64,000 nucleotides of DNA from Spirochaetia bacterium. GTDB lineage: Bacteria > Spirochaetota > Spirochaetia > DSM-16054 > Sediminispirochaetaceae. How positions within the stretch are numbered: the first letter of the stretch is position 1; each line of letters starts with the position of its first letter. Shown here one piece after another: positions 1,328 to 59,569 of this stretch. A program made the translations under genes and the position numbers. The stretch spans positions 544,001-608,000 of the forward strand of contig JAXHMY010000003.1 of NCBI GenBank assembly GCA_034520965.1, in the 5' to 3' direction. The notes under the pieces are model-generated. The model searched no databases, was not told the origin of the DNA, and worked only from the letters and a program-made list of their open reading frames with translations.

Positions 1328-2902
1328 ATGGGTCTTAAGTATGAAAATTTGGATGCAACCGAGAGTTTTTCAGTATTAAATAAACTCCCGGTGCCTTCGC
1401 TGCGCGAGGTTCTTACCACTGAGCGTGTTTCCGCGTGTACCATACCGGTCGGCGGTGGACTGTCTTTCAACTATGCCGCACTTCCGGTGGATAAAAAGAT
1501 ATCCGCCGCCCTGGCCGAACTTGCCGATGAGCAGCAGCTTATCGACAAATACCGAGCCCTGCTTGATGGTGAACGCATGAACACCGGTGAAAACCGGATG
1601 GTACTCCATCACCTGACGCGGGGTCAGCTTGGAAATGCCGTTGAAGAAAATGGTCATAACTTTAGAGCTTTTTATGAAACCCAACTGGAGCGTATATCGG
1701 CCTTCAGCAACAAGGTTCATGAAGGGACCATTAAAGGCTCAACGGGAAAGAACTTTACCACCGTTGTGCAAATCGGCATCGGCGGTTCTGATTTGGGGCC
1801 AAGGGCTCTCTACCTGGCCTTAAAGGGGTACTACTCTCAAGCCAAATTAGAGGCCCGCTTTATCTCTAATGTCGACCCCGATGATGCCGCAGCCGTACTC
1901 GATGGGCTTGACCTGGAAAGCACGCTTTTCATCCTGGTGTCCAAAAGCGGTACCACCCAAGAAACCCTGACAAACCAAAAGCTGGTACATAACTATATTT
2001 CTTCGCACGCCCCTAAAATTGATACACGTAGACATATGCTGGCGGTCACCAGTGCTGCCAGCCCATTGGCCGATTCCGAGGACTTTCTTGATAGCTTTTA
2101 CATCGATGATTACATTGGCGGTCGCTATAGCTCCACCAGTGCAGTCGGGGCGACAGTCCTTTCCCTGGCCTTTGGAGGGGATGAGTTTGCACGTGTACTC
2201 AGAGGAGCCCACGATGCCGACCGCCATGCCCTGGAACCATCCTTCTACGACAATGCTGCCTTAGCCGATGCACTCATGGGAGTATACATGGGCAATATCT
2301 TGAAATATCGGGTCAGTGCGGTGTTGCCCTACTCCCAGGCTCTGGGACGCTTCCCGGCTCATCTGCAGCAGCTGGATATGGAAAGTAATGGGAAACAAGT
2401 AAGCCGCAGTGAAGTGCCTTTAGCTTATCACACCGGCCCGGTTATTTTTGGGGAGCCGGGAACCAATGGTCAGCACTCTTTCTATCAACTACTGCATCAG
2501 GGAACCGAACAGATTAATTTACAGTTCATTGGCTTCCTGAAAAACCAGCGCGACCTGGATTCAGTACAAGACGGTTTCAGCAGCCGCCAAAAGCTTAATG
2601 CAAATTTAGCGGCTCAAATTGTTGCCTTTGCAAAGGGCAAGCAAGATGAAAAGCCTAACAAATCCTTTCCCGGCAACCGCCCCTCCAGCCTGCTGTATGG
2701 GAACGAACTTACGCCCGAATCCCTTGGAGCTTTACTGGCCCATTTTGAGAACAAAGTAATGTTTCAGGGTTTCACCTGGAATATAAACTCTTTTGATCAG
2801 GAAGGAGTTCAGCTGGGAAAACTGCTTACCAAGGAAGTTCTTGGCGGCGAACCGCAGGATGCCGGTTTGAGCGCATACGCCCGTTTGCTGGGAGTTCTCT
2901 GA
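1328..2902 (+). CDS. pgi: Glucose-6-phosphate isomerase
   Basis: IGIGGSDLGP, SKSGTTQET, GGRYS, QQLDMESNGK, GTNGQHSFYQ and FDQEGVQLGK motifs. Confidence 0.97.
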   Translation: MGLKYENLDATESFSVLNKLPVPSLREVLTTERVSACTIPVGGGLSFNYAALPVDKKISAALAELADEQQLIDKYRALLDGERMNTGENRMVLHHLTRGQLGNAVEENGHNFRAFYETQLERISAFSNKVHEGTIKGSTGKNFTTVVQIGIGGSDLGPRALYLALKGYYSQAKLEARFISNVDPDDAAAVLDGLDLESTLFILVSKSGTTQETLTNQKLVHNYISSHAPKIDTRRHMLAVTSAASPLADSEDFLDSFYIDDYIGGRYSSTSAVGATVLSLAFGGDEFARVLRGAHDADRHALEPSFYDNAALADALMGVYMGNILKYRVSAVLPYSQALGRFPAHLQQLDMESNGKQVSRSEVPLAYHTGPVIFGEPGTNGQHSFYQLLHQGTEQINLQFIGFLKNQRDLDSVQDGFSSRQKLNANLAAQIVAFAKGKQDEKPNKSFPGNRPSSLLYGNELTPESLGALLAHFENKVMFQGFTWNINSFDQEGVQLGKLLTKEVLGGEPQDAGLSAYARLLGVL

Positions 2903-2943
2903 AAAGCTCCACTGTAATCCTCATTTCGCACTTATATCAAATC

Positions 2944-3011
2944 AGTTTCGCATACCGCTTCGCGGCAACCGAAACGACGAAAATAGCTGGATACGGCTAT
3001 TTTCTAAATAG
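2944..3011. repeat. 68-bp double-hairpin repeat, copy 1 (inverted relative to 4802-4869)
   Basis: 60/68 identical by eye to the reverse complement of 4802-4869. Confidence 0.85.
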
Positions 3012-3018
3012 AATACAC

Positions 3019-3053
3019 AAAAAAGGGCTGCCGAAAAACTTCCGGCAGCCCTT
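3019..3053 (-). terminator. Intrinsic terminator, minus-strand oriented
   Basis: GGGCTGCCG/CGGCAGCCC 9-bp stem followed on the minus strand by T6 (A-run 3019-3024). Confidence 0.85.
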
Positions 3054-3231
3054 AAAAATGAAAAGCACTTAAAAAGAACCCTCAGGGAAAAGGAGGTACA
3101 AAACCCTGAGGGATAACAAAAAAAGGAGGTCGATGAAAAAGTTTCCATGCTCTTCAATGAAAAAACCATTCTGGCTGGATATGGTTACATAGAAACAAAT
3201 AATTTATGGAAAAAACCATAAATTAATTATC
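3019..3231 (-). ncRNA. Candidate ~210-nt sRNA with anti-SD/anti-start motifs
   Basis: Own promoter and terminator, several hairpins, two ACCUCCUUUU motifs (one in a hairpin loop), no convincing ORF. Confidence 0.6.
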
Positions 3232-3237
3232 TCCAGT

Positions 3238-3266
3238 AACTTAATAAAAACGAAAAAAAATGTCAA
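3238..3266 (-). promoter_or_regulatory. Sigma70-type promoter TTGACA-17-TAAGTT
   Basis: Perfect -35, 17-nt spacer, TAnnnT -10. Confidence 0.65.
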
Positions 3267-3274
3267 TACTCAAA

Positions 3275-3290
3275 TGTAATAATTTTCACA
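3275..3290. promoter_or_regulatory. CRP/Rex-like box TGTAA-N6-TCACA
   Basis: 9/10 match to TGTGA-N6-TCACA; a weaker box TTGCTATATTATTCACAA lies at 3356-3373. Confidence 0.4.
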
Positions 3291-3379
3291 TAAATATTAT
3301 ACACCCTAGAAATGAGACCAAATTTTTTAAATTTATTAATCTATTATAGCTTTTATTGCTATATTATTCACAAAAAATA

Positions 3380-4732
3380 TTATTTATCTTTAATGTACAC
3401 CTGGTTTTTCATACTCATCGGCTGGCGAGTATTTTCCAGCACGTCACGCCATAAACTGCCCTCAATATCGACATGCCGACGCTTAGAAACCGCAACCCGC
3501 ATTGGCACATGCACAAAATTGTCGTGGACCATACTAATAAGAGTTTTTGTTTTTCCCGCTACCGCCGCATGCACAGCATTTGCACCCAGTCGTGAACAGT
3601 AGATTGAATCGTTTGGATTTGCTGCAGCACTGCGAATCATATAGCTGGGATCAATATACTTGATATTTACTTCCATGCCGTCTTTTTCAAAAAACTCCTT
3701 GATTCTTCTTTTTAGTACTGAGCCAATGTCCTCTAGACTCTTATTTCCGGACAAATCGGTTTTGCCGGTTTCGCTGGTGAGTTTTTCCCCGGCCCCTTCG
3801 GCTACCAAAATAACCGCATGATTCCGGTCTGCAAGGCGACGTTTCAGGTGAACGAACAAACCATTCTCTCCATCTAAGTCAAAGGGACTCTCCGGGATGA
3901 GGCAAAAGTTTACATCGCTCATTGCCAAAGCCGTATGGGCTGCAATGAAACCGGACTCACGCCCCATCACTTTTACCAAACCAATGCCGTTTATGGTATC
4001 GTGAGCCTCGGTATGAGCTGCAGAAACAGCTTTTACAGCCTCAGTAACCGCCGTGTCAAATCCAAATGACCGCTGAATAAAACTGAGGTCATTATCAATA
4101 GTTTTGGGTATACCGATAATGGAAATCTTAAGGTTGCGCCGTTCAAGCTCTTCCGCTACCTCTAAAGCTCCGCGCTGAGTGCCGTCACCACCAACGGTAA
4201 ACAGCATACTAATATTCATACGCTCGATTGCATCTGCAATCTCTTCAACTCGATTTCCGCCGCCCCGTGCCGACTTTAAAATCGTTCCCCCCTTGGTTTG
4301 AATATCATCAACAATCTCCGGGTCCAATTCCAAGGGCGCAAAACCGGTTTCCGGGAGAAAACCCCGATACCCATTCTGAATGCCGGTGATTCTTGTAATA
4401 TTATATCGATACCACAAACAGCGTACTACTGCTCTAATAACATTGTTTAGGCCGGGGCAGAGCCCCCCGCAGGTGACAATCGCTGCATGTACATGCTTTG
4501 GGTTGAAGTAAATCTTCTCGCGGGGACCGGCCTTTTCCAGCAGCTCATGTGGGTCAAAACATACCTGCTGATGATCCTCCACGACCCCTTCGATATGATA
4601 AAGGATCTTTTCCTCATCATTTACGTAATTGGCAACCATATCTCCATCTTCGGTCGACATAATTATTGGTGATGTAATTTTTCGTTTGCCTAAGGCTGGA
4701 ACGCTATAATCTTTTGCTTTAGTATCCGACAT
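3380..4732 (-). CDS. pfkA: ATP-dependent 6-phosphofructokinase (long type)
   Basis: TCGGLCPGLN, GGDG, PKTIDND, MGRESGFIA and DPSYMIRS motifs. Confidence 0.93.
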   Translation of the reverse strand: MSDTKAKDYSVPALGKRKITSPIIMSTEDGDMVANYVNDEEKILYHIEGVVEDHQQVCFDPHELLEKAGPREKIYFNPKHVHAAIVTCGGLCPGLNNVIRAVVRCLWYRYNITRITGIQNGYRGFLPETGFAPLELDPEIVDDIQTKGGTILKSARGGGNRVEEIADAIERMNISMLFTVGGDGTQRGALEVAEELERRNLKISIIGIPKTIDNDLSFIQRSFGFDTAVTEAVKAVSAAHTEAHDTINGIGLVKVMGRESGFIAAHTALAMSDVNFCLIPESPFDLDGENGLFVHLKRRLADRNHAVILVAEGAGEKLTSETGKTDLSGNKSLEDIGSVLKRRIKEFFEKDGMEVNIKYIDPSYMIRSAAANPNDSIYCSRLGANAVHAAVAGKTKTLISMVHDNFVHVPMRVAVSKRRHVDIEGSLWRDVLENTRQPMSMKNQVYIKDK

Positions 4733-16909: not shown

Positions 16910-18238
16910 TTATCTACTTACAATTCCATTCTGTATCGCAATTGCCTGGGCTGCGTTGGCAGCTTGCTCAGGATTGCGGTTATTCAGGAACATTTCCATA
17001 ACAGTAGCAAAGTCATTCATAAAACCTTCATTTGCGGTTACCCCGTGAGCGAGGCTACCTACAATTCGGTTATCAGCAAAGTCTTTTGCTGCAGATTGTG
17101 AATAGTCGTTGTATTTGCTCAGGTCAGAGTCTGTACGGGAAGAAATAGAGCCCTTCAGAGGATTGAAAGTGTCCTGGCCTTCCAAGGAACCACAGGTTTT
17201 GAGCCATGCCAAGGCAGCGGCAGGGTTCTTGACACCCTTCGGAAAACCAAAGCTGTCGGCCAAGAACATAAAAGCCCCTTCGGTTCCCGGTGAAGCTGCC
17301 CAACTATAGTCGCTTCCAGGTTCAAGATTAAGGGTGGTGCTCATGTATCCTGCAGCCCAGTCGCCCATAATGTTAAACGCGGCATCGCCGCCAACGACCA
17401 GGTCGGTAGCCTGCTGCCAGCTTAAGGAAGAGAAATCGTCGTTGGTGTACTCTAGAACTTCATCCAGAGTCGCCCACACTTCAACTGCTTCTTCGCTGGT
17501 CCAGCTCAGTTCACCGTTCCACAGTCCATCGTATTTATCCGCACCAAGCACACCCAGGGCAACCGATTCCCACAGGTGGTTTACAGTCCAGTTAGTAGCC
17601 AACGAAAGAGGCACAACCCCTTCTGCTTCCAGGTCGTCTGCAATTTCCAGGAACTCATCCCAAGACTGCGGAACTTCTACTCCCCATTTGTCTAGGTTCT
17701 CCGGAATATACCACATGACGTTGGAACGGTGTATATTTACCGGCACCGACCAAATACCGTTTTCGGTACCGATCAGATTGATCAGGTCTTCAGGAATAAC
17801 ATCCATCCAGCCTTCGGATTCGAAGAGGGGAGTAAGATCCAGCATTCTCTCGGCTGCCACCCAAGTACCGATTAGCTCTTGTCCGGCATGAACCTGAAAA
17901 GAGTCGGGCGGGTCGCCACCAAGCATTCTGGTTTTCAGAACTGCCTTTGCATTTACACCGGAACCGCCGGTTACAGTAGCGTTGATTACTTCAACCTGGG
18001 GATAATTATCATTATACAGGTCGATCAGTGCATTAAGCGCGGGGGCTTCATCGCCTGCCCACCAGGAAAAAAGTTCCAAATCGCCGCTCGGTTTTCCGTA
18101 ATCCAATTTAACTTCCGGAACCTCTGCAGTCTCGGTTTCTTCCGCAGCAGCGGCGCCTTCCTGCTGTCCACCGGCCCATACGGACACCATCGGCAGTAAC
18201 AGCAGTAGTGTGATCATCAGGGTTAGTCCCTTTTTCAT
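16910..18238 (-). CDS. Sugar ABC substrate-binding protein (glucose/mannose-binding type)
   Basis: [20 protein letters not shown] and MGDWAAG motifs; signal peptide plus AGGQQE. Confidence 0.9.
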
Positions 18239-29048: not shown

Positions 29049-30326
29049 TTAGTCGTTGGCCTCTTCCAGCATTTCTACAAACTCTTCTGGAGTGGCTCGT
29101 CCGAGAGCCAGCTGGTCCAATGCAGCTCCAAACTCCTGGACTACAGAAGCAGAGAACTTACCGGAGAGGTGGCTGACTACAAATGACGCATTTTCCTGTG
29201 CTTCTACAAATTTCTTCTGAAGCGGATCAACATCGTCGCTTGCGTCAAAGGTAAATTTCGGTACCATTAAAGCACCGGAGTCCATCGAAATGCGCTTTAC
29301 GTTTTCTGGCTCACTCATGTACTGCAGGAAGGTTAAAGCAGCTTCACGTTTGGCAGGATCGTCGGTTGCGCCGGACGCCAACACCGTCTGGATAAACCCT
29401 ACCTGCGCACCCTGTTCGCCGCCGGCGGCTGCCGGAGCTGAAGCTTAGTTCTGTAGCTTCATAAACCTCAGGGGCATTCTCACGGATATTACCGATAAAC
29501 CATGGACCATTAACGAACACTGCGGTTCTCTCAGCCAGAAAGTGGCCGGAAGGAACTGAAGGACCGCCGCCGATGGCGTCTTTAGTGGTATTTCCATCTG
29601 AATACAGCTGTTTCAGGATCTCGGCACCCTTTACATACGCAGGATCCGAGAGAGGCTTGTCCCATACGTCCGCGGGCCGCCGACACTGGCCATGATGTGG
29701 GAGTACCACAGCATACTTGTCCATGCATTGGCTCCGCCGGTCATTTGAGAGGTCGGGGTCACATCGATAGCTTTTAACTTCTCGGCTGCCTCCCAAAACT
29801 CATCGTAGGTCTTTGGAAAACCGTCAATACCGGCTTCTGCAAACAGGTCGGCATTGTACCAGATGGGGGTAATTGCCATTTCGTAAGGAATTACCTTGGT
29901 CTGACCGTCGAGGGTGACTTCATTTACGATACTGGAGTCAAACCGGTTGCCCCAGCCGCCTGCCAGATCTTCGGAAAAATCTACCAGAATATCTCCGGAA
30001 TAGAAATCCTTCGTATCGGGGTTCCACTTCAGAGTAAAAATGTCGGGCACCTGACCACCGGAAATCTGGGCAAGAATTTTCTTGTCGTAGATATCGTAGT
30101 CAGGCATCTCTTCGATTTGAACCTTAATCTGTCCGGCATGCTTCTCATTGAACTCGGCAACAATGTCGGCTACCGCGTCCGCTTTTGCATCTTCACCTAC
30201 CCAAATACAGGGCCAGTTCAGAACTACCTCTTTTTGTGCTTCCTGTTGTCCACCTGCAAGCACCGGCATAGCCAGTACGGTAAATAGAGCAATCAGCATA
30301 ATTGAAAAAACAGTAATTTTTTTCAT
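29049..30326 (-). CDS. Sugar ABC substrate-binding protein, frameshifted
   Basis: Signal peptide plus AGGQQE; WYNADLFAEAGI and NGPWF motifs. Confidence 0.85.
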
Positions 30327-58189: not shown

Positions 58190-59569
58190 TTAGAAGTTCA
58201 CCTTAACACCAGCAGAAATCTGCTGTTTGGGATCGCCAGATTCTATATCGTTCCAAGAAAACGTGTTCCAGTCAAATTGCCGCGCAATACCAGCATTGTC
58301 TTCATTAAGAAATCCGTATGTAGCATACAGAGTTGCCTGTTCCGTTACAGCGTATTCAACACTCACATCTGCAAAATAGCCGGTTCGCGCCTCACGCATT
58401 ATGGAATCCGTAAAACCATGTACTTCTTCAAGTGCTTTCCTTTTATACTCAAAGAAGTGATACATACCACCGGCCACAATAGCGTTCAGGCCGGGGCTTA
58501 CTTCGTAATTTACCCGCGCAGATGCCAATGCCTGATGGTCATCCTCATAACCTGCCCCACCCATATTAAATACATTGGTCGGGTTTACGGTGTTACGCCC
58601 GGAATTGCCGATCATGCTCGAGAAGGTATCGAACCCCGGCTCTACCAGGGCTCCATTGAATACAAACAGTCCCTGCGCCTCGACAACCAGTACCTGAGGC
58701 TGCAGATCGCTGACCTTAGAAAAATCGAGTGCAGGACGCAGCATCGCTGCAAAGTTGAAAGTGTTCCATAATCCTCCACTTTCTGTATTTATTCCACCGA
58801 AAGTACCATCCTCGTTTAGGTCCCCAAATGTATCACGGTCATTGTCTATGGGGAACATAGTGTGTGCGGCAAACTTAAGGTCGATTGGGCCTGCCGGACC
58901 TTCCATGAAGGGACCAACAATGGCAACACTGTCTAGCAGGAACGGAGGAGTTGCTGTGGCATCGCCGACAAAGTAGCCGCCCAAGAGTCCCCAGAGGATC
59001 TTGCTTTGCAGATTATAGCCTACCGCCGCTGCAGCAAACAGGTGACCGTTACTGGAAACGTCTTCGATTCCAACATCCTGGCGGAGGTCGTACAGGGCTA
59101 ACAGGCTCAGAGGGCCACCGAGAACCTTGTCCAGATCGTACTGGTAGGCAATCCGATCGCGACGGTCGCCGGAGGTAGTAAGGCCGTGGCCCCAATTCGC
59201 TTCTTGGCGGCCTACACTCAATTTTCCACCGAGAAAGGGCATCTCCACATAGCCGATATCAAGGCCGAAATTTTCTGTCGAGGAACTATCATCCCACTCG
59301 GTAACTCCTCCGCCGCCGGGTTTACGGTGGTCACCGCTCCAGTACTGGTCGTAGAGGCGCAGGCCTACATGGACCTTTACATCGCCCCCCAGGTCAAAGG
59401 TCGGTGCGATGCGCAGGCTCTGGTAGAATCCCTGAATATCGTCCGCAGTCTCTCCCTGCATAAAACCCTGCAGCTCATAGGAACCGCTCCAGTCCGCGTC
59501 TATGGCCGATACAGTCATCGGCACAAGCATGGCTATCACGATTGCTGCCACTAATAAACTCTTTTTCAT
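58190..59569 (-). CDS. Putative outer-membrane beta-barrel porin
   Basis: Signal peptide, amphipathic G/Y/F-rich strands, terminal GVKVNF. Confidence 0.7.
   Translation of the reverse strand: MKKSLLVAAIVIAMLVPMTVSAIDADWSGSYELQGFMQGETADDIQGFYQSLRIAPTFDLGGDVKVHVGLRLYDQYWSGDHRKPGGGGVTEWDDSSSTENFGLDIGYVEMPFLGGKLSVGRQEANWGHGLTTSGDRRDRIAYQYDLDKVLGGPLSLLALYDLRQDVGIEDVSSNGHLFAAAAVGYNLQSKILWGLLGGYFVGDATATPPFLLDSVAIVGPFMEGPAGPIDLKFAAHTMFPIDNDRDTFGDLNEDGTFGGINTESGGLWNTFNFAAMLRPALDFSKVSDLQPQVLVVEAQGLFVFNGALVEPGFDTFSSMIGNSGRNTVNPTNVFNMGGAGYEDDHQALASARVNYEVSPGLNAIVAGGMYHFFEYKRKALEEVHGFTDSIMREARTGYFADVSVEYAVTEQATLYATYGFLNEDNAGIARQFDWNTFSWNDIESGDPKQQISAGVKVNF

Follow-up and report, generated by a model that had tools for sequence, protein, structure and literature searches.

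The window analysed here is a 64,000-nt stretch of a Spirochaetia genome, positions 544,001-608,000 of JAXHMY010000003.1, and the coordinates below count from its first letter unless another contig or locus is named. Our gene calls place an intergenic gap between two convergent genes, pgi (1328-2902, plus strand) and pfk (3380-4732, minus strand), whose products were matched over cut-off by the NCBIfam models PRK14095 (glucose-6-phosphate isomerase) and PRK06830 (6-phosphofructokinase), respectively. A preliminary description had proposed that this gap holds a minus-strand unit composed of a promoter, stems, a loop, UUUUCAU tracts and a terminator with U6, and each of these elements was found where it had been placed. 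In 2000 dinucleotide shuffles of 3019-3266, two ACCTCCTT never occurred (0/2000) and three TTTTCAT occurred once (1/2000), and the folding of the minus strand had a z score of -7.2 relative to shuffles.

The flanks of the unit contain additional features. A dispersed palindromic repeat of about 70 nt, forming two hairpins, occupies 2934-3014; 30 copies of at least 55 nt are present in the same genome, many copies occur in some relatives, and many contigs from RNA libraries match it. On the other side, a TGTGAAAA box (3274-3291) is located just upstream of the sigma-70-type -35 element, is kept in most relatives of the genus and is a possible operator. The genome encodes Rex-type proteins, but a Rex operator above the promoter was not supported: scored against a Rex consensus, the sites at 3274 and 3356 contain 4 and 3 mismatches, and 351 and 59 other intergenic places, respectively, are equally good.

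Two predicted promoters precede the conserved part of the unit, both on the minus strand. The upstream one is of the sigma-70 type, TTGACA-17-TAAGTT (3238..3266; -35 element 3266-3261, -10 element 3243-3238), was read in the sequence and is predicted to start a long form near 3231. A generic promoter scan did not have this site on its list, which included the distal terminator. Conservation supports that the promoter is real, since the TTGA of its -35 element is invariant among 20 aligned homologues; a sigma-70-similar site was observed at 32 of the 63 loci with the ECF-type promoter described next and at 7 of the 8 other loci. The long form would begin with a hairpin at 3200-3225 (minus strand; 10-bp stem 3225-3216/3209-3200) that has compensatory and G-U changes inside the genus, and other genera carry unrelated hairpins at this place.

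The internal promoter is predicted to be recognized by an ECF sigma factor and consists of the -35 element TGTAAC (3184..3189) and the -10 element GTT (3164..3166), which lies 17 nt past it. TGT(A/T)AC and GTT were found upstream of 63 of 71 homologues, at a conserved spacing of 17 nt (56 loci) or 18 nt (7 loci) and with a free spacer sequence. These elements had been read as a second stem of the RNA at 3164-3186. The complementary AACCAT and ATGGTT are indeed there, but they belong to the promoter, and the stem was rejected as an RNA structure. Complementary AAC and GTT come with the promoter itself, and the two pairs that follow them can form in only 27 and 31 of 55 sequences. The ECF-driven start is predicted at about 3157-3154, because the ATG of the ECF sigma gene itself follows GTT by about 6 nt. 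Since both promoters are conserved, two forms of the RNA are predicted, one of about 85 nt from the ECF promoter and one of about 160 nt from the sigma-70 promoter, in place of the single transcript of about 210 nt that had been envisaged.

The short form corresponds to the core of the sRNA (3071..3155, minus strand), which was delimited by alignment and covariance models and whose ends are predicted. It contains two sites complementary to Shine-Dalgarno (SD) sequences. Site 1 (3118..3140, minus strand) reads UUUUUCAUCGACCUCCUUUUUUU and is composed of an anti-start-codon tract, UUUUUCAU, followed by CG and the anti-SD motif ACCUCCUUUUUUU. In the core alignment, from which L073 and L074 were left out and in which 6 identical cores were merged, ACCUCCUU of this site is at least 90% conserved. 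Folding leaves the anti-SD motif 83-98% unpaired and the anti-AUG tract 35-48% unpaired. The anti-start-codon tract is present as first described, but of 91 loci with two motifs only 47 retain its UUCAU, and the other 44 lack it. The remaining UUUUCAU tracts are also present in the window and were not upheld in relatives, the second being variable within the genus and the third restricted to the genus level.

Site 2 is included in a terminator hairpin (3079..3112, minus strand) with a 9-bp stem (3112-3104/3087-3079) and a 16-nt loop (3088-3103) that reads UUUUGUACCUCCUUUU, and is followed by a U tract (3071..3078, minus strand), the predicted 3' end, that is found in 92 of 94 aligned members. 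Covariation analysis, proposed earlier as a check, gave strong evidence for this hairpin: 98% of cells are paired and changes on both sides are observed at 8 of the 9 pairs, well above slid controls. The terminator proposed at first was another one, the distal hairpin with U6 (3019..3053, minus strand; stem region 3053-3023), which is unalignable past close relatives and represents a genus-level second terminator outside the conserved RNA. The alignment thus places the conserved 3' end at the hairpin with the anti-SD loop (3079-3112) rather than at the distal hairpin. The motif ACCUCCUUU is retained twice, once in single strand and once in the loop of the terminator, and both copies equal the tail of the genome's 16S rRNA, which reads ACCTCCTTTCT.

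The internal pairs of the terminator hairpin include 31 G-U and 0 A-C pairs, a tally made with our own pairing heuristic on the model-fitted alignment, and together with the U tracts this places the RNA on the minus strand. The element has its own promoter, an intrinsic terminator, a conserved unpaired seed and no conserved ORF, the features of a trans-acting base-pairing sRNA. Conservation, covariation and strand asymmetry support well the proposal of a minus-strand trans-acting sRNA with exposed anti-SD motifs, and we regard the element as almost certainly a real sRNA gene.

To place the internal promoter in a regulon, we compared it with other promoters of the genome. The motif TGTAAC-N17/18-GTT is located 32 nt before the ATG of an ECF sigma gene (C8:262130) and was found before 30 of 30 orthologue loci of this gene, which were the best-scoring 30 of 255 genomes with a match, an arrangement typical of a leaderless promoter under autoregulation. 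The promoter of the sRNA therefore matches the autoregulatory promoter of an ECF sigma factor from the same genome, as is characteristic of ECF-dependent sRNAs. An ECF domain was found in the sigma gene product, and the next gene encodes a zf-HC2 anti-sigma domain and a hydrophobic segment. The sigma gene is cysS-linked, has matches in 255 of 301 class genomes and, judging by gene order, is possibly the counterpart of TP0092 (RpoE). According to PMC7826278, -35 elements of the GTAAC type occur in several groups of ECF sigma promoters.

In a matrix scan of the genome, the top four sites were those of the ECF gene, an sRNA paralogue, this RNA and an exported protein of 228 aa. Orthologues of two of the first three sites had been used to train the matrix, and the paralogue was not in the training set. 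This paralogue (C1:476364-476469, equal to L270:1465-1570, plus strand) has an ECF-type promoter, is about 70 nt long and carries the anti-SD motif only in its terminator loop. It is kept in 5 of 9 genus relatives, and the motif precedes 5 of 6 loci, namely the 5 matched by pattern. The exported 228-aa protein (C3:130912-131598, equal to L308:213-896, plus strand) has a conserved ECF-type promoter, with the motif present before 15 of 15 orthologues within the family and before none of 8 loci that are more distant, and is a likely member of the regulon. It has no Pfam match, and one atlas row suggests a 3keto-disaccharide-hydrolase-like domain. The bare motif at spacing 17 was not enriched genome-wide (21 sites, versus 20-34 at other spacings), and motif matches before khpA and flaA, which overlap the SD sequences of these genes and do not reach the top ranks of the matrix scan, were treated as chance.

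Among 60 further model hits, hand-picked from outside the training set, the motif was found at spacing 17/18 in 31 and at other spacings in 0-6. Two genomes are without a sigma match (G100/L074 and G102/L249), and their members lack the motif, although two are too few to count. Taken together, it is very likely that the sRNA is ECF-driven, as far as promoter comparison can indicate, and the internal ECF-sigma-type promoter likely defines the core of about 85 nt and links the RNA to a stress regulon.

The RNA is widely distributed among spirochaetes, although the relatives in all of the counts given here are not independent. The region 3070-3192 is present in 16 of 16 family genomes, and blastn with the same region matched 78 of 301 class genomes, a few of them through the terminator only. 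The core profile matched 71 of 74 loci examined; L080, L084 and L088, weak blast matches without a profile match, were dropped. A covariance model built from 63 cores matched 101 of 150 class genomes at E <= 0.01, often with 2-4 matches per genome. A broader model found members in 19 of 41 genomes of family f33 and, at the level of the phylum, in 23 of 150 genomes; among the latter are 9 of 9 genomes of one family that lies outside the class and in which the anti-SD-loop hairpin is the only shared part. No covariance-model match was obtained in families f26, f10 and f5, nor in most of the other classes searched. An exact pattern scan of 185,579 genomes returned 84 loci, 83 of them titled as spirochaetes; they came from Sediminispirochaeta, Sphaerochaeta, Pleomorphochaeta, Thalassospirochaeta and unnamed Spirochaetia, and one short contig was titled Leucobacter. 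All 84 pattern loci have an ECF-type (49) or a sigma-70-type (65) site, and Sphaerochaeta-type members have the sigma-70-type promoter only. Two tandem anti-SD-loop hairpins were observed in the members L241, L244, L251, L258, L263, L239, L243 and L245. Outside the class, hairpins with a CCUCCUUU loop at L298 and L303 are located directly behind apparent tRNA genes (called by eye) and are possibly tRNA-trailer sRNAs.

The family is apparently undescribed so far. The Rfam search that had been suggested gave no family of Rfam 15 at its gathering threshold, the best scores and thresholds being 23.3/97, 22.4/40 (ar15, AbcR1/2) and 20.9/110 bits (LhrC), and 0 matches were found in 10 homologue loci. 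Searches of the openly readable literature found no description of this RNA; no matching motif was found in main-text passages and two supplements of a periodontitis ncRNA survey (PMC7160235), and passages of PMC12655853 have nothing on it.

Expression was considered in five runs, all consisting of unstranded contigs of salt-lake RNA libraries and containing 4-8% of the words. The contigs cover the element and its flanks, and some from window-like strains continue beyond 3231 on the upstream side, reaching 3261 and 3312, as pfk read-through or DNA would give. At the homologue L037, a mismatch-free contig ends at 1498, next to the predicted ECF start (1496-1499), and the first position of another contig, 1408, falls 11 nt inside the sigma-70 start predicted for this locus. 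Depths on L037 are 83.5 and 28.9, compared with 2-11 on the flanks, although contig depths cannot rank genes. The contig end near the predicted ECF start is a weak hint of a transcript end; because the positions 1408 and 1498 differ, these ends were not counted as proof.

Given the two exposed copies of the 16S tail, the RNA probably acts by pairing at ribosome-binding sites. Candidate targets were taken from our own calls of 2252 ATG-start genes of at least 100 aa, 261 of which have a heuristic signal peptide; gene starts are heuristic too, and the start caller favours SD matches. An SD sequence (GGAGG) combined with ATGAAAAA (AUGAAAAA) was found in 8 of 84 genes for exported proteins, compared with 2 of 238 cytoplasmic genes, a 12-fold enrichment (p = 5e-4), which agrees with the earlier proposal that the mRNAs of MKK-starting transporters are targeted. 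The duplex ranking did not bear this proposal out, as it failed to beat an anti-SD-only control. With the real 5' extension, 10 exported genes were ranked in the top 50, and 12 of 40 shuffled extensions performed as well or better; the top 100 contained 26 exported genes with the anti-SD alone versus 20 with the full site. The anti-AUG tract thus gave no gain in selectivity over the anti-SD alone in this ranking, and about half of the top-ranked genes are cytoplasmic. Whether exported proteins are the main targets appears, from these sequence comparisons, to be an evenly balanced matter.

The three initiation regions quoted in the preliminary description, at 18238, 59569 and 30326, are present in the window. 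Two of them belong to candidate targets, a sugar solute-binding protein of the SBP_bac_1 type (16910..18238, minus strand; rank 5 of 2252) and a porin-like exported protein (58190..59569, minus strand; rank 11 of 2252). The latter is porin-like by predicted structure only (Pfam E about 0.008). Its gene is present in only 2 of 41 genomes; being so rare among relatives, it cannot explain the age of the RNA and was rejected as an ancient conserved target. The protein at 30326 also matches SBP_bac_1, and its gene lies outside the duplex top 60. The frame of this gene (29049-30326) reaches a stop after 231 aa, and another short frame comes next; several genes of the window look split, possibly by assembly frameshifts. 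No match to PF17209 (Hfq) was found in the genome, which is 86% complete, and KhpA is encoded.

Other readings of the same element were weighed. The ECF-driven RNA could dampen translation broadly through its anti-SD motifs, or it could regulate a small number of specific non-envelope mRNAs such as those of carbon metabolism, with the anti-AUG tract doing no more than adding affinity for any strong initiation site. The full site is no better than the anti-SD alone at enriching exported genes, cytoplasmic genes make up about half of the top ranks and only the loop motif is retained in many paralogues, all of which a broad damper would explain, and a role in carbon metabolism would account for the linkage to pfk (upstream at 37 of 131 loci) and pgi (downstream at 43). 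We nevertheless find this unlikely, because the exact AUGAAAAA complement is kept across many families and enriched in exported genes, and because a membrane-anchored anti-sigma factor adjoins the sigma gene. If instead the CCUCCUUU loop were a protein site and not a seed, the RNA would be a sponge, a ligand of KH proteins or a binder of the ribosome machinery. The repeated loop motif, the multiple copies per genome, the tandem hairpins of some members and the presence of KhpA would suit such a role, and the authors of the LhrC study raise the same possibility for LhrC (PMC4132741). It is quite improbable here, given that both motifs equal the 16S tail and that site 1 is co-linear with the order from SD to AUG. 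The related reading of a GGA loop, as in a CsrA-type sponge of the CsrB/RsmY kind on the plus strand, fails, since the G-U pairs and the U tracts show that the transcribed strand carries CCUCC.

That the element is only the 3' UTR and terminator of pfk, shared with pgi and without a separate RNA, is very improbable. The stretch from the pfk stop to the element yielded no terminator, and contigs bridge the region, which would fit this reading; however, the element has its own promoters at a fixed distance, the upstream frame is in the opposite orientation at 48 of 131 loci, and termination alone would not conserve the sequence of a 16-nt loop. Least probable of all, to an extreme degree, is that an SD and an ATG on the plus strand start a small peptide gene. 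The plus strand does read AAGGAGGT, then ATGAAAAAG, and opens a frame of 19 codons starting with MKK (3133..3192), which had been named as the coding alternative. Across 47 loci, the corresponding frames range from 3 to 43 aa, are unrelated in sequence with nothing in common after MKK and are frameshifted within the genus; in addition, the gap between GGAGG and ATG is only 3 nt and the strand asymmetry favours the minus strand. The peptide reading was rejected, and the 19-codon ORF is taken as a by-product of the antisense motif and not a conserved gene.

The preferred reading, an ECF-driven sRNA that pairs at ribosome-binding sites, has counterparts in other phyla, and the RNA may function like FoxI, MicA/RybB and LhrC, apparently without belonging to them. 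MicA, RybB, MicL, VrrA and MicV, the sigma-E sRNAs of Gammaproteobacteria, use seeds at the 5' end and not anti-SD loops, and FoxJ accompanies FoxI in Fusobacterium nucleatum. The MicA/RybB-type sRNAs need Hfq, for which no match was found here. AbcR1/2 have anti-SD motifs in a loop and in single strand and target solute-binding proteins, but they are alphaproteobacterial, Hfq-dependent and not ECF-driven. The sigma-E sRNAs form a non-coding repressor arm of the ECF stress regulon that is aimed at envelope mRNAs, according to PMC9546586. The same paper describes FoxI of Fusobacterium nucleatum, which, as is predicted for the present RNA, is an ECF-dependent sRNA of an organism without Hfq and pairs across the SD of porin (fomA) and sugar-binding protein (mglB) mRNAs, with binding to mglB not needing Hfq. 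FoxI has the promoter AAC / GTCWAA, in contrast to TGTAAC / GTT here. The present RNA also carries two copies of the 16S tail, of which one lies in the loop of the terminator, as well as an anti-AUG tract, and a sigma-70 promoter is its second; FoxI was set apart by its described promoter and layout together with the absence of an Rfam match. LhrC1-5 of Listeria monocytogenes are similarly a family of envelope-stress sRNAs in several copies that do not require Hfq and have redundant CU-rich motifs in single strand and loops pairing at the SD and into the coding region (PMC4132741), although they depend on the two-component system LisRK and use a UCCC motif in contrast to ACCUCCUUU and an ECF-type promoter here. 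For TP0092 (RpoE) of Treponema pallidum, 22 putative target ORFs are reported, and the passage, as cited in PMC4222731, names no sRNA; one 1.1-Mb genome of family f33 (G164) has a sigma match and no sRNA match. The RNA is likely a member of the ECF-dependent repressor sRNAs with a family of its own.

We thus propose, with a probability of roughly 0.6, that the element is a conserved spirochaete sRNA that is transcribed under ECF-controlled stress and represses translation at ribosome-binding sites, probably those of mRNAs for exported proteins. In this model, envelope stress would free the sigma factor from its membrane-anchored anti-sigma factor, and the freed sigma would switch on its own operon, the exported 228-aa protein, the RNA of about 85 nt and the paralogue. 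The sigma-70 promoter would supply a longer basal form in many lineages and would be the only one that Sphaerochaeta-type members possess. On mRNAs, AGGAGG would be the seed site for the anti-SD motifs; in the pfk/pgi-linked orthologues, UUUUUCAU may extend the pairing over AUG-AAA-AA, with the mRNA spacer bulged out. Such pairing would block 30S entry without Hfq and reduce the synthesis of exported proteins.

A bolder possibility, which we put forward tentatively and hold to be doubtful, is that this ancient sRNA family constitutes most of a minimal ECF stress regulon, with a target class read by the SD and the AUG-Lys-Lys start of the signal peptide. If true, any exported protein, even a new porin or transporter, would come under stress repression without a co-evolved site. 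The RNA is also a suitable case in which to study how selectivity for targets can arise, without Hfq, in an RNA that carries a copy of the ribosome's anti-SD tail. The comparison provides a sigma factor matched in most genomes of the class with a promoter motif, together with a small predicted regulon and a family of sRNAs. With it, the ECF responses to envelope stress would have a non-coding arm in Spirochaetota as well, treponeme-like genomes included.
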